A stretch of 64,000 nucleotides of DNA from Candidatus Omnitrophota bacterium (GCA_049517335.1 JBEKSD010000004.1:1-64000); one strand, 5' to 3'; counted from the stretch's first letter, positions 761 through 42,700 are shown. Notes: a model not told the origin generated them from the sequence alone. Translations and numbers: made by a program.

Positions 761-3700
761 TAAGAAAGAAACAAGAGGAATGCCTAAGGAAGTTAAGGTC
801 GGCATCCGAAACTGGTTAATGGCCAACTTAAGGGGACCCATGCAGGCAGAATTTAATTACATAAGTTATGCCTTAGGCCTGCCGATTGAGCGCGAGCCGT
901 CATTAGAAAATAGAGTAATTTTAAGATATTCAGAAGCATATGATACTGTGGGGGGTGTTGAATTCCATCTACAGAGTCTAAACCGTTGGCTGCTGGAAAG
1001 AAATAAAGGTTTGACTATTATTCAAGCTTATCTTACTGATAAGAGCTCTGGAGAGTGGAGTGAGAATGTTGGCAGAGGAAAAATAATTTATCTTCCTATA
1101 CCGAGGATTTACGATAAGGACTATAACGCTACAAAAACAGATGCATTAGTTGCAGAAAAAATAACATTCCTCCTTAAAGAATACTCAGTTGATTTGTGTA
1201 TTACTAATTCTCCTTATCACCATTCTTCGGTAACCTTCTGTAAAGTAGCGAAAGAAGCAGGTCTTCCTTTAATCGTCCAGTATCACGGAGGAGAGATGGT
1301 GCTTAATCGTAACCTTTCCGATACTCATCCATTCAATAATAATTTTTTATTTGCTAAAAGAAATTTGCGGGCTTGCATGCAATTAGCAAACGGTCGCGCA
1401 GGGATAAGTAATTCCGGTCTTAGCGAAATTAATTATGCGGATGCAGTAAATTTAAGTAACTCAGTAGATACCATATTCTTTGATCCACAAAAGGCAAACT
1501 GGGGTAGCGTTAGAAACCGTCTCGGCCTTGGCGGTAGGTACACCATCTTATTGCCTAGTAGAATTACTCATGATAAGGGGCAACTAGATTTACTTCGGGC
1601 ATGTAAGTTACTGAAGGATAGAGGATATGATTTTGTTGCTATATTTGTAGGAGATGTGAATGATGAGGTATACAAGACAGAGCTAATAAGATTTTTAGAA
1701 CAGGATACAGAACTTGCTTCGAGGGTTTTTATACTCCCCGCAGTTAATCAGGAAGACCTTAGAGACATGTATGCTGATGCCAATGTAGTAGTTTTGCCTA
1801 GTTATAATGAAGGATTAGGTAGGACAATTATAGAGGCCGAAGCTATGGAGACGCCCGTAGTTGCTTCTAATGCAGGAGGTATTCCTGAGGCATTAGTAAA
1901 TGAGGATACAGGATTACTCTTTAAACCTGGTGATATAGAAGCCATAGCCAAGCATATAGAATTTTTAATAAATGATAAGGTCGCAACAATTGAAATGGGC
2001 CAGGCAGGAAGAAAGTTTGTCCTCGAAAAATTCTCACCCCAAGCGCATGTCAGGCGTCACGAGGCATTTTATTGTAGATTTTTATTAAGGAGTTCTTTAG
2101 TCCATACAGCTGCTTCTGCAGGGAATTTATATCAAGATGCCGCTTATGGTGGATACTCCTTCACGCGCACATCATCTACTTCTCGGATACATGTTAAGCA
2201 TCATCCAGAGTTTTCCCCTCAAGAGGATGCTTTGGGTGTTGTTTCTTTTGGGTTGGTCATGGGTAAAGATGCAATTAGGACTACCTCAGAAGGCAATGGA
2301 CCTAATCAAAATATAGCACAGGATTATATGGAGGCAAATCTGGAAGGGGTATTAGAGAAATTGAAACAATTAATTGAGAAATTGGGTAGTAAGATGCCCA
2401 AGAAAATCTCCGACACACTGATACCGGTTGAGTTTTCTCCGGAGACTCCGTTAAAAAGGCTGGCAGAGACTGTCGGCGAAGGCAGCAATAGGAAAATAAT
2501 CTTTTCCTGGGCCATGATGACCCGCGCCCCGCCTCTCATCGCTCAGCTTACCATTGCCGAAGAAATCCTGCATTATTTCCTACCAGAATGCGATGATCTT
2601 ATCCATAACTTAATTGACGATAATTTTGTATTAAACACTAGTTACCATGAGTGGAAACATTTTGTCCGCAAAGCAGAACCGCGGGGAATATTTGTTCCGG
2701 CTTTCCGGTGTTTGAATTGCGGCTTAGATGTACCTATACCTCAAATAGGGGCGCATAGGAGGGATCATTGCCCGAATTGTTTATGGGCGTTGCATGTAGA
2801 TGATACAAGGCCGGGTGACAGGTTGTCTTCTTGTAAGGGTTTGATGAAACCGGTAGGGGTTGAAGTAAATACAAAGTATGGCTGGGATATAATATACTGT
2901 TGCACCAAGTGCAACGCCATAAAGAAAAACAGAGCCGCCCCTGATGATAATATTGATGAGATGGCACGTATTGTCCATCCACGCGTAATAACACAGATCC
3001 TTGAAGGCGGGCAAGAGGAAGCCAGCTCGTCGGCTGAGGCGGGAGCGCTTATCAGAGAAGGCGTTGACAGCTTCATTCTAGCCAACCTGCGTCATTTTAT
3101 AGAAGTCCAGCATTTACAGGTGCCTGAAGATACCCTAATAGAAATAGCCAGGATTTGGGAGAAGGCGCAGCAAAGCGGAAAGAAAGTAGACTTATCAGTC
3201 CTTGGTCTTGAAGAAACCGTAAGGATACGCATTGAGGATTTTGCCAATGATCCGAATGCTTTAAGAGGAGGAATCCCAGTTGGCAAGGATAATCAGCCCG
3301 GTAGTGACAACTCACAGGTTGGGGCTGAGGCGAAGCAGAGTGTTTCCCAGATGAACGTCTCCGGAAGCACCATTTTGGATGAGTTGAGATTTGAATCTGT
3401 GCTGGGAATGTTTATAGAAGATAGCGAATCTCCTCTGGTAACTACTGAGAATTTAATAAACCAAAACAGTGCATCTTTAATTATAAAAGGTCAAAGAGAT
3501 GGTGAGATATTTTATAAAATTGCAAGACCTGGAAAGAATAAAAAAGAATATTTGTCAAACAACGATGATGCTATCAGAGAAGCGAGGGTGTTGGCCCAAC
3601 TCAATAGAAACGGCTTAACCGGCATACCGAAATTGCTGGCAATTGGCGTAAATAAAGACGGCAACGTCTGGATGAAATTGCTGGGTATAAAAAATGCAGA

Positions 3701-6700
3701 GAATCTGCGGTCACCTCGCTGGCAGAGATTTACGCACTCTCAAAAACTAGATATCCTTATCCATACAGCAAATATAATAAAAGGCATGCATGAGGCAGGG
3801 TGGGTCCATAATGATATCGCCCCCAAAAACATTCTTGTAGATGAAGAAGCCAATGTGATGCTGATTGATTTTGGCATAGCTTGCAAGGCAGGGTGCAGAG
3901 TTCTTGCGGGAACAAAAGGATTTGAGCCTCCGGAAGAGCAGCGCACCGCTAAGTCCGACGTGTATAGTTTTGGCCAAACCTTGCGCCATCTGTTTATTTT
4001 TACCTCAGGGGAGAAGATGGCCCTGGATGACATCCGGACAAGCGGGCTACAGGTCCTTGTCGATGGAACGACGCAAAGTAATCTGGATAATAGAAACCCG
4101 GGAAATATGGATGAGGTTATAAATAACCTCAATGCCGTAAGGGGTTATTTTAAGATAAGGGGGAAATCTAAACCCGCGCCAGCTGCGGTCGCATCTCCGG
4201 CTGAGGCTCGGTCAGAAACCGCCTCTTCGCCTTCCAAAGGTACTATAGAAATCATTGCACCTTTAAATTCTCACGAGCAAATCGTACCTTTGATTAAAGA
4301 GTGGCATAAGGCTCATCCAAATAAAAAGCTGCTTATCTTCAATTTTGATTCACATAGCGATAAGATAGTTAGTGAAGATGCGGATGCCCTTGATTATAAC
4401 TGGGCTATGAAAGTTGAAGAAAAGGGAATGGCGTGGGTGATACATTTTGGTTCACAATACCGTAGTATGGGATATCGTATGAGGGATAATCTTTGGAGTC
4501 TTCCGGAGCGAAAAAAAGAGATATTGCGACAGATTCAGGCACTTAATGGGCAATACGACGAAATTTGGTTGACGATTGACTACGACTTTTTTTCAACAAT
4601 TAACCAAGCATCTTGGCTTACTGAAGAACCTCTGCCAGCTTTTATTATGAGTAGCAATGAAATAAAAGCTGCCCTATATGAATTAGCAGAATTTTTGATT
4701 TCAAATAATTTGAGGGTTACCCGTTTGATACCAGCAATAAGTTGGGGTTATTTGGGCGTATCGCAGGGTATGAAAGCAGAATATGTTGAAGGAATTACCT
4801 CTCAAATTAAAACTATTTTTGGCCGCCCGTTTCATGAGATTGCCGAAGTAGTCCATACTGATAGCGCTGCGGGCGAACAAAAATCGCCGCTAGCTGCGGC
4901 TGCGAAATCCACCGCCGAAAAACGAGTTTTTGGTCAAGGGGATTTAGAGCAGCACTATTTTAGTCCTGACGCTTATAATTTTCATACAGAGACTCTTGAT
5001 TTTCATGAGGATAGCGTTGTCAATATGGCGTTCGCAGGTGACATCATTGATATTGGTGCTGGTAGTGGTGTTCTTTGGAGGGAATCTTTAAGTCGTCTTC
5101 CAAAGATACGGCGGCTTACGTTAGTCGATCTTTCTGAAGCATCGCTTGAAAAAGGCAGGGAAATTGTTAAAGATAAAAGAGCAAGTTTTGAATATGGGAG
5201 TGCCTATGACGTTGGTAAAAAGCATGAGAGGGAATTCGATTATGCATTGATGCGAGGTGCGCTCCATCATTTTGAACATGCTCAAGAAGCAGTAAATAAT
5301 GCGGTTCAGGCATTGCGAGAACAAGGAAAACTTGTCCTTATGGATGTGCTTGGTTATGAAGATGCGGAAGTTGACAGCTTGTTTAAAACAATTACACAGA
5401 TGCGTCAGCCTTTAGATTATAAATTTTACTCTAAATCAGAGTTAGAACGCATGCTGACAAAGGCGGGTTTTAAAATTACAGAGTTTCGCACTAATGTTTT
5501 TGAATTAGATTTAGATTTGTGGCTTAGTGAATACAAAGACGCGGCAGGTGTTTTAAATCTCTATGAAAACGCACCGGAAAAGGCCAAGAAGGCCTTTGGT
5601 TATAGAAAGGCTGGGGGTAAAAAATTCGCTTCTTTTACCGCTTATGTTCTTGTTGCTTCAAAAGCCAGCTCGCCGATAGAAAATGTTCTCCTTTCAAAGG
5701 CTGAAAATAATCCGCCCTCCGCCGCGCCTACGCCCGTCGCCGCTAATACAGCTAATGCCTTGAGCGTGTTCTTTCTATTAGAAAACCCTAATCTCACCGT
5801 CAGCCTGATTTTAGCTTACTTCTTGGCATGTTTCTTTAGGCGGGAGATTCTTAATTCCTGTATTATTAGCCGCGCTCCTCCTTTGGTAAAACAACTCCTT
5901 ACTGCACTTCTCTCTCCCGAAAGACTTTTATTTTTCCTCAAACAGAAAACGTTTTCCTTTATCCGGTCGCTGCAGAGTTTTATTGAATATTTGGTTAACT
6001 TCTTCCATGGCTGGTGGGTGACCAAATTCACCGCAGCGGCCGCGAATATTTCAAAAGGAGACACTGCTAGGTTCCATACAGGCCATATACAAGATTTGCG
6101 ACCCACCCCCGCAATGATAGGTGCTATGGCAAGCACTCCCCAGCCGCTTCGGGTACTGATACTGAACAGTTCACCAAGTAATATTTCTCCTATGGATAGA
6201 TCTTGGATAGAGGGGTTCTTTAGAAGCAATGGAATAAATTTTGTTCTCAAGGAAGTTTGTGATGAGTATGGTAGAAATCTGCGTAATAGTGAATTTGACC
6301 TTATCATTTCAGATACTCGCGTTATGTATGCAGTCTCCCCTGGATTCATACACTCCCTAAGAGAAGAAGATTCACGCAAGAGACACCATACGCATCTTCT
6401 TTATTCTCATGGGTCTCATCGTAGCATAGATGAGGTAGAAGCATTTATCGACCAGATAGAGGAAGAATGGTTTCGTAATCAGGAGGCAATTAATAAGGCA
6501 TTGATGTGCGCACTTCAATCCATTAACTGTCTTAGCTATGCCCTGCACAGAGCCACTGGAATGCCGTTTAAGACAGTATTATCTTGGCTTGCTCCGGCTA
6601 GAGGTGCATTCAAAGACAACCGCTGGCAGTGGTATCTGGGTAGTGCGCTTAGAGAGTTAATGAAACAGGGTATCCCTGTGTTTCAAATAGATAACAGCGT

Positions 6701-9700
6701 TTTTATCCTGCGTTGTCGTAAGAGAGATATCAAGCTATTTAAGATCACAGAGAACCTGTGCCATGCTGAGGTGCTGGAAGAAGAATTTGACTTAGGCGGT
6801 AGACAGCAGATTAAGAGAGTTCCAGAAGTATTAGAAGAGCAGTTTGTGCGAGGCGAAGATAGCTGTCAATCGTCCACTGAAAATTCTGCTTTCAGAAAAG
6901 CAGTAAATGACCTTATCCGCTTCTTCTGCGGTAAAGATTTGCCGGCATTTCCATTCTATGGCCGCTGGGAGATTGAGAGGTACGTGGGAGATTTGTCTGA
7001 ATTGCCGGCCCTTGAGGCCAAATTAAAGGCAACCTTTCCGGCTTTGGCGAAGAACTTACCTCTTAGACTTTTGCGAAAAGAAGTATTTGCATGGGCAAAA
7101 ACCCATCACCCTGACGTCTTAAAAGAAGAGATAGAATCTGAGTTTGAAGGAGTAACTTTTAGATTTAGCGTTGAGGAGATAATTGAATATGTTTTAAAAC
7201 CTGATGGAGAAAAAGTTGCAGAGTATAAAAATCCCGTAAGGATAGTTTATAGAACCCCTATTTCAGATAGAAGCCAGGCAGCGCCTTGGGCATATAAAAG
7301 AAAGGCAGCCTTATTGAGGCTGATAGTCTATCGAGACGATATTGCTTCTGATGAAGACAAGGACCTCTACCGTTTGTGGACAAATCAGATTAGGTTCTCA
7401 GCTATATCAACATATGAATTCTCAGCTATATCAACATCTAAATTAGTATATATGCTTCACTCTTCGTCAGAAGCAACAGCAAGAGACATTACGGACGAGC
7501 TGGTAAGGCGTGCTTGGATAGAACCAGACTACGTTGCAGGCCTAATTGTAAGAGTAGCGTTGGGTGATAAAACCTGTCAGAGGGTAGTGATAGAAGCTCT
7601 GTTAGCAATTGCCACCAAGATAGATATAATTGCGGTTAAAAATCCGCTACTCGGCGCATTTGCTGACCCGTTATGCACAGAGCCAGCCGCAGAGGTCTTT
7701 TTAAAGATTGCAGCGTTAAGACCAGACCAAGTAGAGGATTTTGAACGGCACATTAAGCATATATTAGTAACTAATAAAAACGAACAATTCGTAAAGACAG
7801 CGGAAAAAGTACTTGCCTCGCTTGAAGCTAACACAGGGCACCTAGGTGATAAAGCTGCCTATTCAATTCTTATTTTTCCGATGTTTGCAGCTATGCTTCC
7901 TTCAACCGGTAAGCTCATCGCTGCTGTATTATTAATCTCTGGCTTCTTAATTTTTATTTTATCCAGAACAAAAGCATTTTGTAAAATTATCCGGTCGCTG
8001 CGGAATATTATAGAGTATTTGGTCAACCTCTTCCGTGGCTGGTGGGGGACCAAAAATCTCGCCGTAGCGGCCGGCCTTTCATGCGAGCAGGCAAATGAAG
8101 GCGAGATAAAGCTGTTGGAAAGATTCAAGACCCCCATTTTAGATAAAGAAGTAACTCCCGCACAATTTAGGGAGAGTCTCAGATTTATAAAGAGTATATT
8201 TAAAAAGGTAAATAGAGAGGTGGCTTCAAGATATGACATTAGGACTATTATAAAAGAGATAAGGTATGAAGATTTTAGAGACATTAGAGGTCAACCTTGT
8301 CTCCTGCCTTCGTGCAGACCCGGTAGAAAAGTAGTATTAAACGCAAATTTTATAAAGTTTATTGCCTACTTGAAAGCAAAGGGATTAAACAAAGCTCCTC
8401 CCCTAAAAGATAGTCAATCAGGTAAAGAATCAGATTTATTATCCTCCTTTGTTTATTCCATAGCCCTGCATGAAATCCGCGGACATTTTAAGATGTCCAA
8501 GGGGCAGCTTATCTTTAATAGCGATGAAGATTCTGCTCAATCTCAAAGAGGGAATAACTACCTATTTATAAATATTCTGGTAATCTTATTTTACTGGCTC
8601 TGCCTCGTGGAAGGACACACTGGTGAGGAGTTAAAGAGAAGGGCAGAAGAGTTTGTCAGGGCTAATCCACAGTATATATTTGAAAGGCTTGAAGGTTCAC
8701 AGAAGAAAGATTTAGTTTCGCAACTCGGTGAGCTTTGTAGTGCTACTTCCGCAATAAGGCCCGCGGTACGCGAATATGTAAAACCCATTGCTCTTTATAG
8801 GACAAGTAGCCGTAGAGGAGAAGCTGGTTGGAAAAGGGTCGTTACTGCCGCACTACTTCAGGGAGAGTTTCCTAATCTTGAGCTTGACCGAAGATTGAGG
8901 ACTGGAAAATCAATTTACTTCACAACCATTTGGGGTGATGAATTAGTGTTGTATCAGTGGAGCAAGCCTCCAGAGAGAGAGAAACTACCTCCTGGTATAG
9001 GGTTATGCCTAACAGAGCAGAAGCCAATCGAATTTATGGCCAGCGATGGTGTAACAATAGAACTTGGCTGCATCGTATTCCCTGCATCTACCCGCGTAGA
9101 TTGTTCCAATGAAGGCAGGTTGATAGGGCAGAATTTAGAAGCACCGTCATTCTGGCGTCGAATAGATGACCAACTGATTGTAGAGCGTGTAGGCGAAGAT
9201 AAGAGAATAATCATAGAGATTGTTGGTATTTTTGAGGAAGAAATCCATTTCAGATGCCGTGGAGATGAATCTACGATGATGGAAACAAGAGAAGGATTTA
9301 AGCCTTCGCATTCACTAGACCATTGTTTTTTTGTGGAATATATGCAGTTAGGAGAGATAGTTAGATTTAGCATAGGAAATGAAATTATAGAGGTTGAATT
9401 AGTGTCCCTTGACTACGGGGGCCAAAGATGTGAGTTAATCGTAATAGCTCCAGGTAATTATAAGGTAATGTCTGCAGAGTTTAGAAGAGAATTCTTCATT
9501 GATTCAGATTCATCCCGTTCATTTCGTGTCGATTTAAAAAAGAGATGGAAATACGCCTCTCCTGACCTTGAGGTTATCCGTACGAGAGGTTATATAAAAA
9601 GATTTGCAGTGAGAAATCCTGATGGAAACTTTGAATTAGTAAGAGGAAAGAGTTTTGGCTTTGCCGGTTTTATTCCTATCATTGGTTTGTTACACGAAAA

Positions 9701-12700
9701 TATCAATTTATTTTTACCTGCTATTATTGCACTCACAACAATAGTAATTATTACTACCTATTTCCGTGCTCCGTTAGAAAGAATTTATTTAATCGTGAGT
9801 TCTCGCCTCGCCGTGGCTGGTGGGAGAATTCGCAGCTTTCTAACGGGGCATGGCTGGTGGGTGACCAAAAATTTCGCCGCAGCGGCCGGAATGATAATTC
9901 TGACGGGATTAGCTTATTATTTTCTTGGCTTGCCACATCTTCTTTCTGGTCTAAACACGGCAGTGCTGACCCTGATGCCGCTTATGGGTATGGTGCAACA
10001 TAAGCGAAAAGGATTTCCGGCGCCTATCCTTCAAGAAATTGAAAGGCGTCTGAAAGGAGAGCAGCGCTTAGAGACAAATCAAGCACCAAAACATGACCCG
10101 GCTCGCACTAATAAACCTTTACGCAATAGAAAAGTCATAGAAAAGCTAGAAAGTATAGTTAGAGAGCAGGGAGACGAGATTACTACCTTTCCTGTTGCGC
10201 AAGACGCTTTAGAAGTCCGAGAAAAAATAGCCCAGCTTCTAGAAACGAAAAATAAAATAGCAGCCACTGCTTTAAGAAGAGCAAAGATTATACGCGCGCC
10301 TCCAGAATCTGTATTGATGCAAAGAATAAGGGAATTACAAGAAGAACATAAGCTTAAGGTTTATGCGCTTAATGACGCAGATAATACAATTATTATCATC
10401 CCCGAGAATAACCCCACAGAGTTAGAGCTCTCCAAATCCCTCATCTATGAGGCCATCGTCATTCGCTATCGAACTAATATGAAGAGTCTTCATAACTACG
10501 CGCGCAGGGTAGCTATAGAGTTAACGCGTCCTACCGAAGTAAAGGAAGTCGTTACTCGTATCTCCACAATAGAAAAGGATTTTACTGATACCGCTGCAGC
10601 AGAAGAACCTTTTAGCGGTATCCCCTTTCAGCGCGGAGTGGATGATCAACTAATCGTGCAAGGTATAGACAACGGAGGAAAGAATACGTTGATCATAGAA
10701 GTTTCTTATATCAAGGGAGCAAGAATTATGATTAGGATACGTGCTCCAGAATTTATTGAGGTAGAAATGCCCGGTGTTCCTAGCGTATCGCAAACAAATA
10801 CCTGGAAATTTTTTGCTAAGCAGGGATCTATATTTACCATAAAAGATACCCAGAGGCATGAAGCCATAAGAGTAAAAGTGGAATTAATCCAGCCGGCTGG
10901 GAAAGCCTGGGTTTTAAAGGTTGAACTTCCTCCTTGTTTTACTATAGAGCGTGCGGAGGATAGAAAGGTTACTATAGAGGGTTCTCCGGTTGTTGATTTA
11001 CCAGTCGGATATAAATACTTCCATTATGGTCTTGACGCCATATGCAGAAAAGGGAAAGATAGTTCAGAAATAATATCAAGGGGAGCTGACGGAAGATTCA
11101 ACCAGCAAACCGACCGCTGTTGCGACGGGAAAAACCACCTTGAAACTATCGCTTACCGCCAACGCATTATCCAAAAAGCAATAGCCGCCAAAGTAACTGA
11201 GGAAATTGCTTGGGGGCATATGGAAGATATTGCAGGATATTTTGAACGGTACGGATTAGATAATTTAGCTAATTTAATCAGGGCGATGTGGGAAAAGAAA
11301 TTCTTCTGGATTGTGTACGGGTTTCAGATTTCAAAGCGATACAATACCGAAACTTACCAGGTTGATTTTGGCGGCGGTTTTATTGCCCATGATGGCTGGT
11401 GCTTCATTCAATCCGGAGGCACTGCAGAACTCAATGAAATCGCCGTACTCTTCCACGAGTTCTTAGCTCGCATAGGCCTTGAACACGAAATCAGTGAACG
11501 CCTGACTGATTATTTTAGCAAAGGAAGGAGGCCTATACCGGATACGATTACGGTAAAAGGCAAGAAAATCAGGATTAAAGACAAGCTGAGAAAAGTTTCA
11601 TCGCGCATTGAAAATTTGCCTGCAGTAAAAGAGCTTCATGACCGTTCAGCCGATAATACGAGACGGCCAGATAACCGGTCGCTGCGTACTGCAAATAGGA
11701 AAAGAATTTTAATTTCTAAAGGATATTTCGGGGATCTAACACCGGAACAGATTGAACAATTTACACAAGACATAGGAGAAGGAATTATAACAATTGAACC
11801 CATAAACGAATTCAATACATACAGAATACCGCTTAATGGAAAGTCTGCGGAGTTTTACTTATTAGGGTCATATTTACGTAACCCGCCTTTTATCTTTGCT
11901 ATACAGGAAGAAGGCGAGGATATCTTAAAGGTTATCTTCTCAGATCGAGCCTTGAATAGATTTAAAGAGGCATTTCCGTATAATAAACCAGCACAGAAAG
12001 GGGCGCGCATAAAAGCATTGAAGGCAATCGCTTTTCATGAAAAAATTGAAATGGAATTAATAAAAGAAGGGACGGATCCGGAAGACGCTCATGAGGAAGC
12101 AGCGAGGCGGATAATTAGCTTATACCCTAATGACATAATCATAATCCATACTATAAACAATATCTTTTCTGAAGATTCAGGAGTAAAACCGCAACGAATA
12201 GTCTCCATAAACCAAAGCGGTTCTTCACCCGAAAATATAGATTTGCTTGATTGGGCTAAAGATTCTATGTTTCGGGGATTGGTAAGATTAGTGGAATCAG
12301 GTCTGGATGATTTTTCTGTCTTGTTAGAGGCCGGTCAAAAGCTTCCTGCTAAAGAAGGGCAGCCTTGGAGAAGATATATTTCGTACCTTGCACGCGTAAA
12401 AAATGAATTTATTCAAGAAGGCGTTTCAAAAGAGGAAATCTTTTTGCAGATATGTGCTTTGATAAGTGAAAGATGGTTTGAAAGTCAAGGATACATTATT
12501 TATGAAGGGGCATTAATGGATCTTCCAAGTATTCCCTTCTCTCTAATCATCGCTAAACTTACTAGAGAAACCGAATATTATAGGATTATTGATCGTATAA
12601 TTCCGCTGTATTTTGTAAAAGATGCATCTTTAATGAATACCGAGAAAAGTTTACCTCACTTCGTAGGAGGTTGGTACGCTAGTGGTAGATGGATATTTGA

Positions 12701-30700: not shown

Positions 30701-33700
30701 TTTAATGCTAGCGTGGGCCTTGGCATTAGGGATTATATTTTCAATACCTTGCAGTATGGAAACAAAAAGCATTATTGTGGCTATCCTGCAACCATTCTCC
30801 GCTATTACTATGTCCTATCTAGCGAACAGGAGATCTGATAGAGGCGGGCAAATAGAATTGAGGGAGTGGGCAAAACCAGTATTAGTTTTCACTCTTGTCT
30901 TTAATTATCTTTTCTTTGTGGTCGGCACCATGTGGCTTCTAAATATTCCCCGCCTTCGTATTCCTATGCTCCTCACAGGCGTATTTTTCTATGTTGCGGT
31001 AGTTTTATTGGGGTTTAGAAAATCCGTTCCTATGCCGGCAGATGCTTTGCCACTTCTCCAGAATTGCCTTACTATCGCTTGCCTTGATAACTATGCAAGA
31101 GGGCCAAAGAATATATTTAGTGACAGAAGCGATATTAATCAGAGGTTGCGCGAGGTTTTTAGATACGCCGGGCCTTCTATAGAAAATTTTGCCGGGCATA
31201 ACAACCTGATAATCAATGAACCGCAATTGCGCTTTATAAACTGGTATTCAAGTTTCATGGGCGAGGATAGACCTATATTTGATATATTGTATTTACAGGG
31301 ATTATACCGCCTTATACTAAGGTCAGTGAATTTTAATTACAATTTTCAAAAGAATTTTGCTGCCTTATCGATGGCAACTCAACTCCTTTTTCTCAATAAG
31401 GCCAATGAATCCTTAGGCATCATTGAAGGTGAAATTACAGCAGCATATTTGCGTAATCCGGCCAATAGAGGAAAATTAGCTTATCTTTATGAGACAATCG
31501 GTGTAGTCTATATGGTTTCCTACGACGAAGAAATACCCAGCATGATGGATGAAGTTTATATCAATTCTTGCCTTGCCTCAGCAGGCCTGAATCTCTACCG
31601 GTTAACACATATGACGATTGATGAAGTTGAAGGTATTCTTAATATTAACCCTTCAAGGATAACTTCGCGGCGGATATCATACCAGGATGAGTCGGAGGAG
31701 AGAGCCTACTACAGGAGGCTACAGGCAGATATAGAGGCCGCATGCGGTATTACCCCGGGAAAACAATCTGCTGCACGAGCAGATTTGGATGTAATGGTAT
31801 CTTCCCGAAGAAGAACCGAATGGGGACGTAACAGAATGCTCTCCGTTCCGATGGAGGATATCGACCATGCCCTGATAGATTTATTTAGAAACAATGAAGG
31901 CAAATTCATCAGAGATACTTTGAGTAAAAAGGTGGGCCACGAGATTGCCTTAAAACATATTGATAATCATATAGTTATAGAATTAAGGAACGAAGCTGCC
32001 CGTAGCGGCATATATAAAGTGTACACCGGAGTAAGCGAGGGGGATAGCGGTCAATTCAAACCATGCGCTTTTGGCTTGGCGGTTGCAAAATGCGATTTTT
32101 TAAATAGGGCCGTAGAAAATGAGTTTAATACAGTAAATCATTTTCGTCAGATTTGCCGTTATGTAATGCAGCCCTACTGTTGCGATAGGGTTTCTATTTC
32201 TGTCGCGGGAATAAATACTGAATTAGCGGTATTTTCCATGGAGTGGAAAGAGGGATTTGAAGAGGTTAATTTTGTTTCAAGGCGGTTGGCTCGAGACAGG
32301 CCTGAAGATTTCGGGGATTTGGTGCAACCGGCAGAAAGTGGCGCAGGAGTTGTTCTATCCGCCTACAATCCAGCACGGGGATTGACAACACTTGTGCCAC
32401 TGGATAATGAACAGACCGGCAGGAATATCAAAGAAGAGATAGTAAAGATTATCACACTCTGTTTTGACCCCGAGAAAGGCGAGAGATTAGAAGACTCCTG
32501 TTTTAATGCCGGAGATTTTGTCTACAATCCCGATACAAAAGAAGTTTCCCTTATAAGCTGCAGGGGGATTCGGGCCATGAATCAAGAAGGAATGTTTGAA
32601 TATACCAAAGAACAGGTCAATGTATATGATTTTATATTTTGGTTGTTATCAACCAAAACGATCTCTCAAGGAATTTGTTGGTTGCCTCCGGGCCACTGGG
32701 GCGATTACGAAGAGATTATCTTTGAACCTCAAGATGTTTTTAATGGAATTAAGAAAGCACTAATAGAGAAATATGGGCCAAGGGAAGGTATCAGGAAGCT
32801 GGTGGTATGGTTTAAGTTTTATAACGAGGTAACTAAAGACTCTTTGGCTCACTTATTAAAGGATGCGGAGCCGCCCGCTGACCCTGCCGCTTGCAACCCA
32901 GCCGGAGTTGCGCGCACGACGAGCTATGGCCAACGCTACTATGAATTGCTTAAAGATGCACGTTGGTCTAGTCAGGTTCGGGCCTGGTTCATTAAGGTAT
33001 TCGTTACTCCATTTATGGAACCGATTGATTTTATGCGTAAGCCAGGAGGATTTGCACGGTTCATGGCTGCTCATAATGATATCTTGGGTAAGTCATCCTT
33101 GCATAAGGCAGCGCAAGTGTGGTTTAGGCTTCTGAGAGTTGCCCTGCGGTTTAAAAACCCGTTTATCAAATGGGGGATTTGGGGTGTTGGTTATATCCCT
33201 GCAGTAATCTCACATTCATTATACAACCTTGGCCTTCGTCCTCAAGGAGCAGCGGTGGGAGTGGCGAGGAAGAATAATCGAGGAAAGCCGATTCAGCCAA
33301 GGCGAGACCAAGAGTTAGAAGCTCTTGTTGAGTCGATTATGGCAAGTGGACAGCAAGAACAAAAGATTTCTGGTGGGATTGAGATAAATATGGTTACCGG
33401 TCCAAATAAGAAAAGATTTGTGCCCGCAGAAGGGCATACTGCTTCACCGTCGGTCACGCTCTTTCGTGATCGTATTGCAAGAGGAGAAATCTCTGAACTT
33501 GTAGATTTGTGTGGCGAAGAGGAAGTTCAGATTCTTCTGGCTAAGTTAATTGATTCAGCTGATTTTATAGTTGAAGTACCTGATACCCCAAAACATGAAG
33601 CAATCATAGATACTGTATTAAGATTAAAAGCAAAGATTGATCTAATCCAGATGATTAGTATTGCTATGGCGATGGAAGCAGTGGTCAATCACCTCAAGGG

Positions 33701-36700
33701 AGAAAGAAAAGATTATGCACCATTACTCGGATACCTTAATGAGTACCTTATTAACAGTCATACGCGCAACAAACGTTTGGCGCAGATGTACGGTAGTATT
33801 CCAGCTATTAGCAGCGCTACTCAGATACAAAGGTTGGAATTGTGGGGAGTAAAAAGTGGCTACCATGCGGATGTAATTCGGGTAGAGGTGAAACTGGTTG
33901 ACCAGCGCACGCTCCGTTTTGCGGTCAACGTTAGCAGGGATTTACGTGATGCAGTAGGTGAACTGCAAAGGGCCTTTGATTCATTAAAAGCTAAATTTGC
34001 CCAAAATTCTACCTATATTATGGAACCCTTCACTTTGGGCATCGGCAACGTATCTTCATGGCGAGGCGAGGAGTCAGTGCCGCTAATGGTAAGCGAATGG
34101 CTTGATGGATTTGACGAACTGCATCTGATGGAGACAACCGGTTCCCGTATACGTGTACGGTATGGCCAGGATGAATCAAAGGACGCTCTGCCTGAGCCTG
34201 AAAGCGACCAGGTCTGGCAAACCATGACAAGAATTAGGACTCTATATTCCGAGCTGACTACCGAGAAAGGCACTGCATTACAAGCACACGTCATCGCAGG
34301 GGACTTCGTTGGGAAAAAGAATGCAAAGGGCGGGTGGGAAGTAATGGTAGTTTGGACGCAAGATAATATTCGCAAGCAATATGCGCGGGAAGAAATTGTC
34401 TTAAATGCCTTGCTGCAGGGTGAAGTGGACTTTCTGTCTAGTTATATTTTTTGTCCAGGCGCAATATTGTGGGAGCGTTTTGATTTGGCCATTCCAGCAT
34501 TTGTGGCAGGTTTTGTTGAGGCAGGAGGAAGAAAGGAGAATGCCTTAGAAATACTGCGGCTGGTTTATAAAGAAACCCTACCAAGGATATTAAAGAGTTC
34601 CGAATCACACCCTGTGGTTATACGTTTACAAGAAGCCTATGGAGAGGAAATTTTAGTTAGGTTGAGGAAACTCCGGCGTGCCATAGGGAAGTTCTTAGGA
34701 GAAGAAGATGCCGAGCCTAGAAAACAAGAAGTATCTGACGAGGAATCCACTGATAGGCCATCGTTGGTGCAAAATGTAGAACTCGAAGATATTATTGGAG
34801 CCCATCCATTTAAAGTGCAGGCGGTGGTTGGTCCGGATAAAACTCCTCTCTACGGAGAAGATGGAACTTTTCTTTCTAATAAAGGACCTACCATAGGAAC
34901 ACTTGAGCAATTACGAGGCTTTCCTTATCAAAAGTTAATTGCCGACTTAAAAAGAGATTGTAATATCAGCGAAGAAATGCTTTTGTTTATTTTAAGAAAG
35001 AGCCGTAATATTCGTGGCGTTATGGTTCCTACAACGTTGGAAAAAACTATTTTACCTTATCTCGATGCTATTATCAAACTTAAAAAAGCCTTACTTACTG
35101 CCAGAGTTCTTGATGGCGAAGAAATCATTCAAGCAGTAATGCTACATTTAGCCGGAGCAGATTCTTCTTACCAAAACTTGCTACGTTATATAAATCATAT
35201 CCTTTCCAACCAAGGACAAAACCCCAGGTTTGCTGCTATTCTTTCTTCGGAAGATAAAGTAAAGAATGTGCAGGAAATTGAGAGCCTTGAACTATGGTTT
35301 GTCAAAGAAGGCTCTATTACCGAGGTTGTTGCAGTTGAAGTGCAATTACGCGATATTGCCGGCAGGCAATCAAAGGTTAGATTTGTAGTCAATGTTCCCC
35401 TCGACCGCACAAAGTGCGTTGAATGTCTGAGGCATGCTTACTCTCGGCTACATACCTACTATCAGCGTAATCCCAGTTTTGTTATGGAACCTTTTGCTTT
35501 AGGCACAGAAGAGGTACCGCTACTTGTCGGAGAATGGGTGGAGAATAGTGATGAGTTACATTTATATCATGAAACTGGCGCAAAGCAATTTCATGTCTGG
35601 GCAGGGCAGGAGCAGAGAAAAGATGTAATACGCTCGGTTGAAGATTCGCGGGAAATTTGGAAACAGATTATTCAGGCTAGGGTTATGTATTCGCAGCTCT
35701 TACCTGAAATGGGAATCCTACCCTGCTTATTGTTTGTTAACCGGGGGGATTATGTGGTCTATGACGATATGCAAGGCAGTCCCCATGTCGTTTTAATTTG
35801 GGATGGCAGTTTGAGTTTATATAAAGGTATCTATGAAGATATCAAGGTTTTTAACCCCGTAGATATTGTAATAAATATGCTTTACATGTTTGACCGAGAT
35901 TCTGATAGCGGGAAGGAATATCTTATCTGTTTTGATGAGCCTGATTTGGCTATTCAGATTTTGGAAGAAACCTTCCCGCTCTGTCAACCCTATCCTGAGC
36001 TAGCCAAGAGCTTACTCCAAATGTTATTTATCACGGCTTACACTGAGGGTTTTCCAAGTTTAATTGAAATGCTTAAACCAGAAGAATCTCTTGGGAGACT
36101 TTTAGATTCGAGCGAACAACCAAAGCTATATGCCGCAGCAGTAAAGGCTTATGAGGCACTGGGTAGATATTTGAAAGGAAAAGAAACAGGCTTGGGTGGG
36201 ACCGGGATTTATTCGCAGGAAGAAATAAAGCAGATGATTGAAGAAGACAGAAGAGCGGGTAGGATTGAAGCGCCTTCAGCGCAACTTAAGCGGAAACTCT
36301 CGTTTGCGAATTTCCTAGCCAGCCCCAACATTATCTACCTGCGCTATATAAAAGCGCGCGGCCTGATTAACGCCCCGCCGAAAGTCCGTGGTTACCAAAT
36401 CATTAACTCCGAACGAATCCGCTTTGGTGCCTGGCTTTCTGATAACGGCGTTCTTTACCTTGAAAGACCCTACCTTCCCCAGAACCTCACCCTGCTTATC
36501 TCCCACGAACGCATAGAAAAAGTAACTCAAGACCACGCGCTAGCCCAGCGTTTAGCGCCCCTGATTCAGCTGCTATCAGCTAACCCGCCAACAGACACAT
36601 ATCAAATGGTGCAAGTCCCCGGGACCAGGATTATTATTTATTCATCCCGAGATATTCCCCTGTCAGATGACTATACCTTGATGTTTGTTAATCTAATTAC

Positions 36701-39700
36701 TAGGATGCCGCGCTTTTTTAAGAGAAAGAAAGCGCTTGATATGGGAACTGGTTCCGCAGCATTAGCCAAGACACTGTTAGGCTATACCAATATGGAGAAG
36801 GTGGTCGCCAGCGATATAATACCACAAGCGGTAGAGCTTGCGCGGATAAACTTAAGTGAAGAAATTAGTGCTGGGCGGGCTCTAGTAAGACAGAGTGACC
36901 TTTACGAAAACATTAGGGATTTGTTTCCGTTTGACGTTATCCTTTTTGCTAATCCCTTTATAGAAGGCGATCCTGACAGGAAGAATATTCTGAGCTATTC
37001 TACAAAAGCAGGGAAAGGGTATTCAACCGTTATCAAGGCATTACAGGGATTGCCTCAGGCGCTTACGCCGGGTGGTAACGCCTTTTTCGTGGCGACGTCG
37101 GGTTATCTCGGTGAAAATTCACCCTTCTTAAATCAGAGAGATCTTAAGAATAATGTGCCTGCTGGGTGGGATGTGCAAGATGTAGGCGAGTCTTACGAGG
37201 CCCGTCAAGGGATTTATTTCTCCGTGTTTCGGGTCTATGACCTATCAAAAGAAAATGGAGGAGTGTATGTTGAGTTGACGCCGGAAGCGCCACGTTTCCA
37301 TTTAGCTGCGCCGCAAGAGTTCAGCGAGTTAATGCGCGTATTAAGACAATACCTGCCAATATATCATAGAAGAGTAGAATCGCCCTTCGCTCCCGGACAT
37401 TATCCTGGGCGACTTATCCCAGCGGATTTGTCCTGGAGGGCTCCTCCAGAAAAAGCGCAGAGAGAATATTTTGAGCGCGCCTCTAAGCAATATGAGTTAA
37501 GGTATGACTTTGACCCCACGCTTGAGACAGTTGCCGAGTGCTCCTTGTTTGGTGCAACAGCCACCTTTTCAAGCGAACTTCTGGCAAGGGCGCCTCCTTT
37601 AAAGGATACCCGTAACTCCCAACTCTTCCAGGTCCTGATTAATGAATTCTTACGCCATGAAAAAGGCCATTCCGAAAATAAATTAGACCCGCAAATCCTT
37701 ACCGAATCCTTAAACTATTTCATAGCCAATCCAAAAGAACTAAAAGATTTCTTAGAGGCACTCAGGGTCTTTGGCGTAGAGATTACCGATAGGAAATACC
37801 TCGCTGAATTAAAGAAGATAGATAGTCTCACATCAAAAAATAAACCCGTAAAAGCCGCTCCTGAGCCGTCATCCCATGCCTCCAGCCTCATAAGAACCCA
37901 ACAACCCGTTGGTTATTATCTTTTGCGGTATCTTATGTTTATTGATGGTCTAACCGAACAATACAATCTCGTCTCAAGCTTGCAAATTTTCTTCTTCGGT
38001 AAAATGCCGGAGAAGTATTTTAAGTTCAGGAAATTCGGGCTTTCAGGGGCCCAACAACAAGAGGCTCTTAATCTCCTTATGAGAGTCTATAAACAGATCG
38101 TTTCTCAAATGGACGAAACATCTCTGGATAGAGAGCTACTTCAAGATTTACTTAATGGTGTTGTAGATGAGGTCGCTAGGATATACCGGATATCTTGGCA
38201 GGATTTCTCGGATGGTTTTGATGCATCGTTGAGAGAAGATAAAGATGTTGTTGACAGAGAGTTCCGAATTTTCTTGAGTTATCTCGAACCTTGCTTACAG
38301 GAGGAAGCTTCAGATAGAAAGTGGCGTATTGCACAATTCTCTCGAGAAGTAAAGAGTAAGCTCCATGACGTGGCCCTCATTTATTTGCTTCAAAATATTC
38401 CTCTTCCCTGGCAAGTTGGTAAGACCAGAGGCAAAGAAGTTTCATGGAGACAAAAGGGTAAATTCTGGGTATTTGCCACGCAACATTATGGTTGGAAGGG
38501 TGTTTGCTATATAGAGGTGGTTTATGCAGAGCAAGCTGATAACCAGCCGATTTATGTTTATTTCGGCGCTTCGCCTCCAGCAACCGTAATAATTGATGAA
38601 GGACTTTATCGGGAATACGCAGGGAGTAATCGCTCCACCCCCGCCATGCAGCCGACGGATGATACCAAAGCTCGGTTGGCTGAGGCGATGGAGCAAGACC
38701 GAAAGGCTCTGTGGGCTGCGCTTGGGAGAGGCGACACCAGCGTTCAGGGCAACGAGCACGTCCTTGCCTTATCGATTCAGATTGCAGCAGAAGAAGAAGC
38801 TAAGCGGCCACATTGGCAGCGGTTGCTGGTAGTGTCAATTTTCTCGTCGTTCTGGTTTGCCCTCGTGCATATCAGAGGTGTGGTGGATATGGAAAAGGTA
38901 AGAGCGGGAGACCCGAATCTGTGGCGACATCCGAGACTTGGTGAACTGTGGAGTCTGTTTTGTTTAGCTCAGGCCACGGACAAAGTTTATCGAAAAAAAT
39001 ATCACGAGGCAGTCAAGCACTCTCTGGGGTTAAGGTGGCAAAAGGGAATAGCCCGGCAGGATGCCTTTGCTGAGGCAATCCAGGTGCATCAGGAATTTAA
39101 CCGTGCGGCCTTCTTGCAGAAAATCCCGAAAAAATATCATCCTGCCTTAACTAGCCTCTTTGCTCAAGGCGTGCCACGCGTGCCGGCAATGGCGGAAAGA
39201 GAGAATGATGATGAATTAATAATTATTGATCCAAAAAAAGGCACACGCGTAAGAACTATTGATTACAAATCCCCAATTCAACTTATTCTTGGGAGCGAGG
39301 GAAGCAAGAGATTCCTAATTTTAAAAGCCAAAGATTACCTAGAGCTTTGCGGAAAAGATGCATACCCCATAAGTGACTCTACTAACAAGAAGTTATATTT
39401 ATTTGAATTAATCGACCCTGGAGGAGAAAAAGTTATTCCACACGCGCCTCTTGAATTGACAGCAACAACCATTTTGCCTTTAGGTAGCGATATACCTGAC
39501 TCAGTCTCTGAAAAAAATTGCTCTATTAACTTAGCATTAGCAGGTGAAGCTAAGTTAACGATAACTGTCGATGTTAATACCAATGGAACAGCATATAAAG
39601 AATGTAGTGTTGCTTCATTACAGGCTTTGCTGACGCAGGGATATAGAATTTATGACAAAAAGGCAGCTGAGCAGACAGAAGCTAGAGATAGAAAAGCCCA

Positions 39701-42700
39701 GATTAGAGAGGAAGGCGACGATGGATTACAAACTATTCCTTCAGGAGGTACACAGCCTATTCCTTACACTTCCCCAATTCAACTTGTCCTTAGACACAAG
39801 AAAATTTTAATTTTAAAACCCGCAGACTACCTAAAACTTTGTGGAGAAAATGCATTTCCCATAGCCCCTAACATAAATTTCTATATATGCGAATTAATCG
39901 GTCCTGAAGAAGGAAATTTTGCCGCACACATCCCCATACCATTGGAAGCAAATGGTTTGACTTTGGGTAGCAGCGAGCAATGCTCTCACGGTCTACGTAT
40001 GCCTAAATCAGTCTTCCCAGAACACTGCGTTATTAAAGAATCAGAATCAGATACCTTATTAGTAACTGATAAAAGTAATACCAAGAGCACAAGATGGAAA
40101 TACTGTAACTTTGACGAATTAAGCTTATTGCTGGAACAAGGATATAGAACTTATGGCGAAGTTCAGACCACTTCCCCAATTCAACTTATTCTAGGAGACA
40201 AGGTTATTTTATTTTTATGGCCCGATGATTACGAGAGAGTTTCTGGACAAAGTCTACCTAACTTAGACCCTAACAAAATCTATATATTTGAATTAATCGG
40301 CCCTAAAGAATTAATCGGTCCTGAAGAAGGAAGTTTTGACCCCCAGGCGCCTATACCATTTGAAACAACCGAGTTAACTTTAGGCAGAGATACAAACTAC
40401 TCTTACCATATGCATATGCCTGGCACAGTCTCTAGGGTCCATTGCTCTATTAGATTCTCAGAACCAGATAAGCTATTGGTATTTAACAGAAGCCCTAATG
40501 GAACGTTAGCTGAAAACTGTAGCATTGCTTCATTACAGAAGTTGCTGAAGCAAGGGTATAGAATTTATGGCGCACAGCCAGCAGAGACTGTAAAGAAAAA
40601 AGCCCGGATTTTCAAGAAAAATGACATATATTTTGTAGCCTTTACGGCTGAGAGCTGGGAGGATGAACTTCCTTTAGCTAGTTTAGCTGCTGTAATGCCG
40701 GTATTAATAAAACAAAATAAACTAAAGAAATTTAATTTTTCATTCACCAAGCCTTGCCTCTGGTCTTGGTTTAGGCCTATCGTTACCATAAATAAGCAAA
40801 AATACAATCTAAAAGATTCTGCTCAATGTCATGCACTTGAGGCCTTGCTAGAAAGTTTTATGCTTGAGACAACAGAGGTGCAACAAATTAGGCCAGAAGG
40901 AAAACCGACGGAAGAAAAACAGCATCATCTTGTAAGGACGGCACTAATTGTTGTTGTGGCTGTTGCGATTATTATAGCGGCGCTTATCTATCTTCTGAAT
41001 CAATTGGGCGTTATTTCGACTAGCCGTTTAATTCCACACTCTTTTAACTCATCTCCAGTATCTACTTTTCTGCACGATCTGCACTCGCAATCGGGCACCC
41101 GGTGCCCGATTGCGAGTGCAGATCGTGCAGCTTTGCCTTTGCAAACGGTGCTCAGTGTTTGTTGCCTTGTGGGAATGATGAGAAGTGGCGGTACACCCAG
41201 CTCGGCTCGGCCGCAGGACGTAAAGGGTAACCCAGTGAAGACCGAGATAGGTGCAATTTTAGAGTTAAAAGGTTATATTAGAATTTTAGCCTCTAATAAA
41301 ACCCTTTCCGAAACTGATATTAAGAGACTCCATCAGTTGGTTTGCGATTGTTACGCGCCCTCTATGGCAAAGATTATCGGAGGCAGATATCGAACTAAAC
41401 CAACTAGAAAAACTGCAGGCGATGACACAAATTATCTTAGGGTGTTTGATGAAGCCCAGACGAGACAAATCCCGCAAATGATGGTTGCTTTTCTTTATTG
41501 GTTTAATCAGGAATATCAGTCTGTAATAGGCAGAGATGTCGGTTCGTTGGTATTGTTTGCAGCAGAGGCACATTATAGATTGACGCATGAGATCCATCCA
41601 TTTGAAGATAAGAACGGATCTACAGCCAGAGCTTTAGTAAATATAATTTACGAAAAATCAGGCACGCCAAAGAAGTTACCTATAAATTTATCCGAAGTCT
41701 TCTATGATAACCCTGCAAAAGTAGATTACTATGACACTTTTAGATTGTCAGAAAGAAAGCAGGCGATACAGCTTCTGTCGCAATTTATTATTGAAAATTT
41801 AGAGTCTGAAACACCGGCCGTCCCCCCAACAACCAACCCTTCCGCAAAGCGCCTCCGTCAAGAAGGTGGTTTCATCAGTCTGCCGGCGGGGGTAGTCCTG
41901 ACAAAGAGAATGGTATCTTCGAGCCCAGTGGTGAAAGTAGATGGAAGATCGACATCTGAGCAGTTATCAGGTTACCTATATAAACTCCTGGCATGGTTAA
42001 AGAGATTAGCGCATTCTCCTTCGCTATTTATGTTTGTATTCACTCTGGGAGCAATATTTTTTGGTAGCCACAGCCCATACGAGTTTGCAGGGCTGTGCGC
42101 GCTGGGGATGATGATGAACGCAGGGAAAAAACCGCTGGCGCTCTCGAGCCCGGCGGGAGAGGACAAAGCCGAAGAACTGTCTGCGAGTCAAGGGAGCAAG
42201 GTGGCTCCGGAAGGCTCGTTGCGGAATACAAACATGCTACTAACATGGTCGTTTAGTGATGAAAGAGATAGAATCAAAGCACCATCAAAGGCTGATGCTT
42301 TCCTTTCTGTATTGGATGAAAAATTGGTAGAAATAGGTTTATTAAAAAGGGACTGGATATTCATAAAGGTTCCATGCATAGAAATGGCTCTAAATATCAT
42401 GAATCACGGTCAGGGGGGAAATATCGAAGTACGTTGTTTTAAAGATGTGGCCTCTTTAAAGAAAGTTGAAGCAACAGGCATTGACAAAGGGTCGGGCATG
42501 GATAATCCCAATGAGTTCTTACAAAGAAGTATAGTTGCCCACTCTAAAATATCTGCTTATGGGCGTGGAGAAATACCACTAAGCGAAGTTCCTGAAGGAG
42601 GGCGTGGTTTAAGGGATATTGTAATATTTCCGGATGAAGTTATCATTGAAACGAAGGGTAAAAAATGGGTTAGAACCGGAGTTACTGATGAGGATATGAA

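Follow-up and report, generated by a model that had tools for sequence, protein, structure and literature searches.

Viral polyproteins and MARTX toxins, exemplified by the picornavirus 3C sites, the coronavirus PLpro site LXGG and the MARTX cysteine protease domain, carry many units in one open reading frame (ORF), where every joint has a short site of low information content, the protease is part of the chain and the order of units is variable. Interdomain linkers rich in Pro, Ser, Thr and Ala, such as the PT linkers of cellulases, also lie between domains and contain Ser and Pro. Here we examine a 64,000-nucleotide stretch of a Candidatus Omnitrophota bacterium (GCA_049517335.1 JBEKSD010000004.1:1-64000), hereafter the window, in which a single giant ORF encodes the tripeptide Ser-Ser-Pro (SSP) ten times. 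A preliminary description of the window had proposed that an (A/V)SSP motif marks the boundaries between domains of this product, as a protease recognition, phosphorylation or glycosylation site that delimits released units. Comparison with giants of related genomes leaves us highly confident that the SSP motif is real, depends on the order of its residues, is selected as a peptide and is located at module borders. That this border mark is recognized for endoproteolytic processing, cleavage included, is a possible reading that we hold with somewhat more doubt than confidence.

The closest described cellular counterparts are the giant multienzyme proteins of Omnitrophota (West-Roberts 2023, 10.1101/2023.11.21.568195; 10.64898/2026.06.07.730766; Seymour 2023, PMC10066038), which likewise are ORFs of >10,000 amino acids (aa) in small genomes, with many transmembrane helices, a C39 domain near the N terminus, and strings of methyltransferase, HATPase, GNAT, HAD, GT1 and ROK domains. 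West-Roberts 2023 (10.1101/2023.11.21.568195) raises cleavage as an open matter, and its text states that the cleavage points are unknown and that this blocked the analysis of giant proteins. A recurrent joint motif is not described in the main texts of these three sources, supplements aside; in the same texts the term "linker" is absent from both preprints, "motif" from the 2026 preprint, and "cleav" and "polyprotein" from PMC10066038. Our literature searches found no published description of a joint motif either. Unlike viral polyproteins and MARTX toxins, the giants are cellular, membrane anchored and 10 to 50 times longer, with at least two interchangeable site types within one bacterial family, and their processing is proposed from sequence. 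Unlike generic linkers, the mark is a single exact SSP in ordinary rather than low-complexity sequence, order-specific and conserved, and local shuffling fails to reproduce its frequency.

The contig of the window (C4) belongs to a 1.45-Mb genome, 92% complete (G000). Pfam matches on the window giant comprise two GT1 domains (GT4-type glycosyltransferases), RNHCP, a Ser/Thr kinase (Pkinase), three methyltransferases, nucleotidyltransferases, ACT, an FAD/NAD fold, FHA, Fic and HATPase_c_2, and their envelopes cover 12.6% of its length. The protein also has 30 hydrophobic 19-aa windows (Kyte-Doolittle mean of ≥1.8); it is a multienzyme, multipass membrane protein. The contig start probably truncates the gene, since the first glycosyltransferase lacks the N-terminal half. 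A homologue search for giants of similar length found one protein, covering 6% of the query.

SSP is far more abundant in giants of the same family. In the giant of genome G023, an ORF of 18,962 aa, it occurs 52 times against 3.27 expected, and the same residues in other orders occur 2 (SPS) and 3 (PSS) times. Giants of the same genus have 29 SSP against 2.23 expected (G048), 36 against 2.72 (G049) and 40 against 2.51 (G061), with 0 to 3 SPS or PSS in each. Further pieces of this type were found on contigs C7 of G023 (19 against 1.85), C12 of G048 (13 against 1.73) and C34 of G049 (13 against 0.69), as well as in G019 (18 against 3.1), G059 (14 against 2.3) and G102 (15 against 1.6). At the 52 sites of the G023 giant, SSP is preceded mostly by Ser (29), Val (8) or Ala (4) and followed at position +3 by Val (28), Ile (9), Leu (6), Ala (5) or Met (2), i.e., by one of these five residues in 50 sites; no other column exceeds 0.6 bit. 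Median spacing between marks is 243 aa in G023, 339 aa in G019 and 200 aa in G102.

The G023 giant consists of whole enzymes in series, including PRK, PMI, RPE, carbamoyltransferase, ROK, HAD, GH77, GDE, CofD, radical SAM, GNAT and others, and also holds transcription-factor-like modules (GerE and sigma-70 region 4). None of its 52 SSP lies inside a Pfam envelope, against 11.0 expected (P = 4e-6). Its CofD module, between SSP 11740 and SSP 12142, measures 402 aa, and free-standing CofD-like ORFs in relatives measure 408 to 445 aa. Block order varies between giants, and the shared blocks start and stop near the mark: 48% of 42 starts and 62% of 42 ends of high-scoring segment pairs (HSPs) lie within 10 aa of an SSP, compared to 5% of 1,680 random points, when HSP ends within 30 aa of a protein terminus are dropped. 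The giants of G023 and G048 share 79% identity over 4,937 aligned residues, and 12 of the 52 SSP have fully aligned flanks. All 12 are kept, with positions -8 to -2 only 33 to 67% identical.

Giants of other genomes of the family carry Asp-Gly-Gly (DGG) in the same places. It is found 66 times against 7.43 expected in G121 (contig C35), 38 times against 3.82 in G114 (C41; mostly as RADGG) and 11 times against 0.39 in G097 (C50), with almost no SSP there, and (K/R/A)DGG occurs 31 times on contig C6 of G087 (L079-L081). Median DGG spacing is 261 to 303 aa. A DGG is no more than 10 aa away from 47% of 19 HSP starts and from the same share of 19 HSP ends, compared to 3% of 760 random points. One module with 79% identity between the two giants has SSP at both ends in G049 and DGG at both ends in G121. 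Similarly, the domain that follows the kinase of the window giant begins A[SSP]SKGTIEII in G000 and S[SSP]VKVVIL in G023 (form SSSPV), and begins M[DGG]INK in G121, A[DGG]SLS in G114 and M[DGG]NIE in G097. The window giant itself has no DGG (2.6 expected), and the type of mark is uniform across separate contigs of one genome.

We surveyed 21 giants over their first 20,000 aa or less: 5, from three genera, were of the SSP type and 2 were clearly of the DGG type, the DGG of G114 being weak in that part; 1 had PTPT runs and 7 had no dominant mark. Other repeated words in the first 20,000 aa were the PTPT runs of G084:C2 (36 against 0.1 expected; L073-L075), YTP and TTQP in G021:C5 (L070-L072), and DIWG and FWYY in G081:C6 (L084-L086), which probably represent linkers or repeat domains of other types. 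R[SA]ExR and LASN motifs stayed at background level in all 29 giant pieces examined. A search of 101 genomes for the HATPase_c family gave ordinary kinases, and no giants, among the matches listed.

Is the mark kept at the level of the peptide or of the DNA? All six Ser codons are used at the SSP sites of G023, from both the AGY and the TCN class. The word GACGGCGG is exact at 64 of the 103 DGG sites of G121 and G114; it is found in frame 0 only (36/36 and 29/29) and almost never antisense, and the low-GC genome G097 keeps DGG without it. These three facts rule out a DNA-level signal and argue for selection on the peptide. Thus the preliminary view that the peptide rather than the DNA is conserved, and that it marks module junctions, holds for the relatives, where the mark is order-specific, is kept while its flanks drift and is replaceable by DGG. 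Synonymous codon choice is nevertheless biased: the second Ser of SSP is TCG in 28 to 45% of sites versus 6 to 12% overall, and TCGCCG occurs in 26 of 92 SSP sites. This bias is locked to the frame (AGY-TCG-CCG or GAC-GGC-GGN) in G023, G061, G049, G048, G121 and G114, and it hints at copying between junctions or at a role at the level of translation. Two further candidates were rejected. DGG does not serve as an in-frame Shine-Dalgarno word (GGAGG), its codons being GAC-GGC-GGN, and a helix N-cap (S-P-x-E) does not fully explain SSP, given that Val and Ile dominate at +3, Glu stands at +4 in 9 of 52 sites and DGG replaces SSP. A CGCCG/CGGCG core common to both marks in opposite orientation would consist of words that are frequent elsewhere in these genes and are present in less than one-third of SSP sites.

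In the window giant, the 10 SSP compare to about 2.63 to 2.64 expected. No shuffle reached a count of 10, whether global (400 shuffles) or local (300 each at 100, 30 and 15 aa, with SSP averaging 2.5 to 2.8); the count therefore does not come from local richness in Ser and Pro. As a single prespecified test, 10 versus 2.63 gives p = 4e-4, and 9 versus 2.63, with one repeat copy dropped, gives p = 1.6e-3. ASSP occurs 4 times against 0.20 expected and is the ninth most enriched tetrapeptide. The order control is weak here, with SPS found 5 times and PSS twice, each at 2.63 expected. Position +3 is Ala (3), Val (2) or Ile (1) in 6 of the 10 sites and Ser (2), Glu (1) or Gln (1) in the others, and position -1 is Ala (4), Asn (2), Gly, Val, Ser or Leu. 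An unbiased gapped-motif scan of the window giant found no delimiter stronger than SSP. The sites of the preliminary description are all present, in frame, in one ORF and with varied codons, as it had stated, and its coordinates for the looser variants are right too (ASSS at 3021, VSSS at 13662, ASSL at 37878 and APSP at 29691). These variants have no support of their own as signals, and its site list, correct in every entry, overlooked the two NSSP at 6165 and 41046.

A position at a module border could be shown for 4 of the 10 window sites (Table 1). At aa 1401, homologues of the kinase end at aa 1390 to 1396 and those of the following domain begin at aa 1399 to 1408; HSPs of the window giant to the giants of G023, G097 and G121 begin at aa 1401 to 1411, and the single block common to the G023 giant and the window giant begins at SSP in both (aa 14278 and 1401). 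At aa 1882, homologues of methyltransferase 1 end at aa 1881 to 1889, and SKASSPIEN of the window aligns with KKASSPLTN in P0046 and with EKSSDAIED in P0003. An AlphaFold2 (AF2) model of aa 1380 to 1960, built on a 33-row alignment (mean predicted local distance difference test score [pLDDT], 72.5), places ASSP 1401 in coil (pLDDT of <50), five residues ahead of the first strand of the next domain, and ASSP 1882 right after the last methyltransferase strand (pLDDT of 98), its Pro beginning a helix. The other two border sites, aa 8020 and 9407, are assigned by the start of a repeat. SSP opens 2 of the 4 copies of a transmembrane-hairpin module, and these two are 77% identical and both begin at the first Ser of SSP; the site at 28239 is thus not independent of that at 24078, since both open copies of one repeat. 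The sequence following SSP in this module resembles a signal-anchor N terminus.

The claim that the sites lie between folded domains is therefore borne out for these four, and Pfam is uninformative for the other six: none of the 10 falls inside an envelope (1.3 expected), which says nothing about those six because of the low Pfam coverage. The domain names "UPF0489", "GNAT" and "kinase-like" at 24078, given earlier, have no Pfam match at E ≤ 0.05. Of the window sites, only the VSSSPV at 41913 has the complete SSSPV found in the relatives. Contig scanning with aa 1401 to 1890 gave one weak unrelated locus, and aa 7901 to 8200 had no match among 40 relatives.

Table 1. Positions of the features discussed, in nucleotides of the window with residues of the window giant (aa), or by genome, contig and locus
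Feature	Location	Strand	Description
Giant ORF	21..42797	+	14,258 aa; frame open from nucleotide 3, the start of contig C4
ASSP	4221..4232 (aa 1401-1404)	+	Joint of kinase and following domain
ASSP	5664..5675 (aa 1882-1885)	+	C-terminal edge of methyltransferase 1
NSSP	6165..6176 (aa 2049-2052)	+	In frame, outside Pfam envelopes
GSSP	12219..12230 (aa 4067-4070)	+	Region without Pfam match
ASSP	24078..24089 (aa 8020-8023)	+	SSP forms the first three residues of the transmembrane-hairpin module
ASSP	25110..25121 (aa 8364-8367)	+	No Pfam match at E ≤ 0.05 in surrounding tiles
VSSP	28239..28250 (aa 9407-9410)	+	Start of second full hairpin-module copy
NSSP(V)	41046..41057 (aa 13676-13679)	+	17 aa past hydrophobic helix 13641-13659; Fic envelope 85 aa on
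VSSSP(V)	41913..41927 (aa 13965-13969)	+	Fic envelope ends 91 aa before
LSSP(A)	42141..42152 (aa 14041-14044)	+	HATPase_c_2 envelope begins 51 aa on
Transmembrane-hairpin module	24081..24332 (aa 8021-8104)	+	Basic stretch, then hydrophobic hairpin (FSQFAV...LALTAP...)
Other hairpin-module copies	21435-21638 (aa 7139-7206); 25482-25622 (aa 8488-8534); 28242-28493 (aa 9408-9491)		
Duplicated block of ~360 aa	33570-36152 (aa 11184-11540 and 11667-12044)		
Internal repeats	39186-40625 (aa 13056-13535)		Three units of ~165 aa, FHA match included
RAPP	2523, 5871, 10293, 20739, 37437, 37587 (aa 835, 1951, 3425, 6907, 12473, 12523)		
Sole C39 match of G000	C22:13806-18758 (L062)		1,651-aa ORF open to contig end; domain at aa 180-258, Cys and His intact
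DGG-type loci	G121:C35 (L043-L047); G114:C41 (L038-L041); G097:C50 (L042)		

The motif was also followed outside the giants. A full-library phmmer search with aa 1101 to 2250 as the query matched 10,158 proteins at E ≤ 0.001, and the best 150 of these plus P0001 (151 proteins, 191,583 aa) contain SSP 72 times against 36.6 expected, with SPS at 44 and PSS at 47. The excess sits in a few multidomain proteins, such as P0035 (8 against 0.59), P0060 (5 against 0.19), P0024 (4 against 0.31) and P0046 (3 against 0.24), and 5 of the 151 homologues have SSP at p < 0.01. For 45 of 234 domain matches, the alignment reached the domain end with 45 aa of flank, and in these border windows (2,025 aa) SSP ranks first among tripeptides by enrichment, with 7 against 0.73 expected, spread over 6 windows. 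Their Ser and Pro contents are 7.6% and 5.8%, versus 6.5% and 4.6% overall. The motif is thus present at domain borders in homologues, a check that the preliminary description had proposed, and local shuffles, the SPS and PSS controls and the composition of the border windows agree that it is enriched beyond a generic Ser/Pro/Ala-rich linker, contrary to the outcome that would have refuted the earlier proposal. A first reading of SSP as chance plus an internal repeat was dropped on this replication and that in G023.

These observations can be drawn together. The giants are strings of self-contained enzyme modules, often of the size of free-standing proteins, on short unstructured joints, with (A/V/S)-S-S-P-(V/I/L/A) as the punctuation that one giant-protein family carries in those joints. 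Modules are gained, lost and reordered, each giant keeping one uniform mark, either SSP or (K/R/A)DGG, and the window giant represents the SSP group in a diluted form that has kept the mark at about 10 joints only. In the model that we propose, an endoprotease would recognize the mark, the likeliest reader being the cysteine peptidase of the C39 type at the N terminus of the giant itself, or else some other dedicated protease, and the giant would be a polyprotein anchored in the membrane, with its modules parted from one another once synthesis is complete. Processing by a head peptidase is plausible as the most economical idea, in that it fits modules of free order and whole-protein size, transcription-factor-like modules and the GG-type mark of the sister giants. 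The earlier claim that the mark delimits the released units goes too far for the window: some 10 joints are marked where several dozen are due, so not all units can be delimited in this way.

Of the 101 genomes of the order, 65 have a C39 domain near the N terminus of giant ORFs, usually a single one in each, at the head of ORFs of up to 68,606 aa, in agreement with West-Roberts 2023 (10.1101/2023.11.21.568195). Its Cys and His (C34 and H120) are invariant in 6 of 6 aligned domains. The ORF with the sole C39 match of G000 is, judging from sequence, probably the missing head of the window giant; a gap between contigs C22 and C4 would remain, since this ORF has no Pfam match other than C39. The G000 domain is 67 to 68% identical to the heads of the SSP-type giants of G023 and G048 and 41% identical to that of the DGG-type giant of G121, which belongs to the same genus as G023. 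In a tree of 21 C39 heads, all 6 of the SSP type fall in one clade (support, 100/99), to which the G000 domain belongs, and all 4 of the DGG type fall outside it; the type labels were assigned before the tree was built.

C39 domains of PCAT and AMS transporters are alike in being of the papain type with a catalytic Cys and His, and as far as that source describes them they cleave after GG, GA or GS (PMC10885120), a cut that matches the DGG of the sister giants in G121, G114, G097 and G087. DGG therefore suits a C39 enzyme and SSP does not. The giants also differ from these transporters in having dozens of internal joints in the enzyme's own chain rather than one leader, in that no ABC transporter part was seen, and in that the window mark is SSP rather than GG, without the hydrophobic pattern at -4, -7 and -12 of double-glycine leaders.

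Several observations weigh against this model, some against the mark and others against its reader. SSP ranks 4th of 8,000 tripeptides in the window giant (p = 4e-4) and drops to rank 14 under a first-order Markov expectation (3.84); the window alone is not convincing, because such a rank lies within the range of multiple testing. Its density is about 1 per 1,400 aa, with gaps of up to 4,269 aa, and the spacing of one mark per module seen in relatives (medians of about 200 to 340 aa) is not found in the window giant. P0004 and P0002, the closest homologues past aa 1401 (83% and 60% identical), have no SSP there, and 39 of the 45 homologue border windows are without it. Between G023 and G049, 1 of 4 alignable SSP is kept, in a tandem-repeat region. 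On contig C5 of G023, aa 1819 to 4360 form a stretch of 2,541 aa without SSP that holds six Pfam domains (PMI, RPE, carbamoyltransferase N and C, ROK and HAD; L013); the stretch may form a single unit, or else an unrecognized mark may stand at its joints. An SSP lies within 45 aa of 28% of 25 raw Pfam envelope starts and of 24% of ends, compared to 12% and 11% at random, a weak measure because many envelopes are partial. As for the reader, SSP is not a GG-like site, the window mark having no GG, GA or GS at -2/-1. A Pro adjoining the scissile bond is unfavorable for most proteases. The -4/-7/-12 hydrophobic leader pattern was absent, upstream columns reaching at most 0.63 bit in G121 and 0.57 bit in G023 (-12 computed for G023 alone). 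In the C39 tree, the DGG-type heads have long branches and an unsure placement, and the SSP-type clade also holds 7 unmarked or other giants, in which no mark is evident over the first 20,000 aa or less. The correlation between C39 and mark could itself be trivial, since both sit in one gene and are linked.

The tetrapeptide most enriched in the window giant is RAPP (6 against 0.16 expected; p = 2e-8), known as the core of ribosome-arrest peptides. It occurs 40 times against 2.46 expected in the giant pieces of more than 20 genomes (414,922 aa) and not at all in the other proteins of G000 (415,115 aa; 1.94 expected), and it is described as strongly excluded from bacterial proteomes (PMC12992588). 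An internal repeat (aa 1954 to 2011) begins right after the RAPP at aa 1951. The RAPP sites may be programmed pauses tied to membrane insertion.

Could the marks work without any cleavage? SSP and DGG might be structure-breaking insulators in the tethers of an uncut membrane metabolon, made uniform through the copying of junction DNA by concerted evolution, an alternative that we regard as rather doubtful. Both motifs are indeed made of classic structure breakers (Pro, Gly and Ser), both modeled window ASSPs sit where structure stops or starts, the preferred words GACGGCGG and TCGCCG fit such copying, the G084 giant has PTPT runs instead, and the giants are interpreted in the 2026 preprint as cytoplasmic arrays anchored in the membrane (10.64898/2026.06.07.730766). 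A tether, however, needs no exact ordered peptide, yet SSP far exceeds SPS and PSS in G023 and all 12 alignable SSP of G023 and G048 are kept while their neighbors drift. The use of AGY as well as TCN codons argues for selection on the residue, DGG persists in G097 without GACGGCGG, and a 79%-identical module has its mark swapped in a giant of the other type. It is unlikely that the marks act instead as translational punctuation, slowing the ribosome at module ends such that each module folds or inserts before the next emerges. In favor of this, peptide bonds form poorly on Pro and Gly, giants show a 16-fold enrichment of RAPP where the remaining G000 proteins have none, and the codons used at the marks show a strong, frame-locked bias. 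Nevertheless, to our knowledge neither SSP nor DGG is a stalling motif, the preferred codons are not consistently rare (G114 uses GAC and GGC, and GGC is its commonest Gly codon), and RAPP does not stand beside SSP, nearest distances being mostly >100 aa. Nor should a ribosome-level signal switch between SSP and DGG within one genus, as it does between G023 and G121.

The phosphorylation and glycosylation sites of the preliminary description belong to another alternative, in which Ser-Pro would be the target, module by module, of a kinase, a glycosyltransferase or a parvulin-type prolyl isomerase or chaperone. SSP behaves as a short linear motif in disordered joints, the window giant carries a Ser/Thr kinase, FHA and two GT4 glycosyltransferases, and West-Roberts 2023 (10.1101/2023.11.21.568195) reports that a conserved gene for a Rotamase_2 prolyl isomerase lies near the genes of giants. 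We consider this very unlikely, since the DGG that takes the place of SSP lacks Ser, Thr and Pro, so one modification chemistry cannot serve both marks, and no modifying enzyme was linked to motif type in this analysis. That the window SSP are chance occurrences plus relics brought in with modules from SSP-type giants, functionless in G000, is extremely unlikely. The rank of the motif, the two sites from one repeat, a density four times below that of G023 and the missing motif of P0004 and P0002 would fit, as would the remaining G000 proteome, which shows no excess (63 SSP against 58.1 expected), and the 2 SSP in a 4,416-aa ORF on contig C11. Against this stand the single-test probability, with or without the repeat, and four sites that lie exactly at module borders, two of them common to homologous modules elsewhere.

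Genes 3' of the window giant are ordinary chromosomal genes. In G114, six ORFs (1,353 to 2,809 aa) with 1 to 4 DGG each lie head to tail directly 3' of a 14,085-aa giant (C41:42394-76806; L040-L041).

A more speculative extension of the processing model, possible in our view and no firmer than that, is that the giants are bacterial polyproteins with lineage-specific codes, SSSP[V/I] and (K/R/A)DGG, read by a fast-evolving head protease, with modules repunctuated on transfer and RAPP pacing translation with membrane insertion. For the window itself the mark is of less value, the copy of the code there being diluted. For the family, whether giant bacterial proteins act as one chain or as cut parts is an open question that a strict border mark makes testable. 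Its two interchangeable forms give a guide to neo-termini in metaproteomes, to in silico cutting for structure prediction and to C39 substrates. The giants are mosaics with modules shuffled at the marks, a finding relevant to the growth of genes of this kind, and if the polyprotein code is true, the motifs would chart for the first time the mature products that arise from proteins of 10,000 to 70,000 residues.

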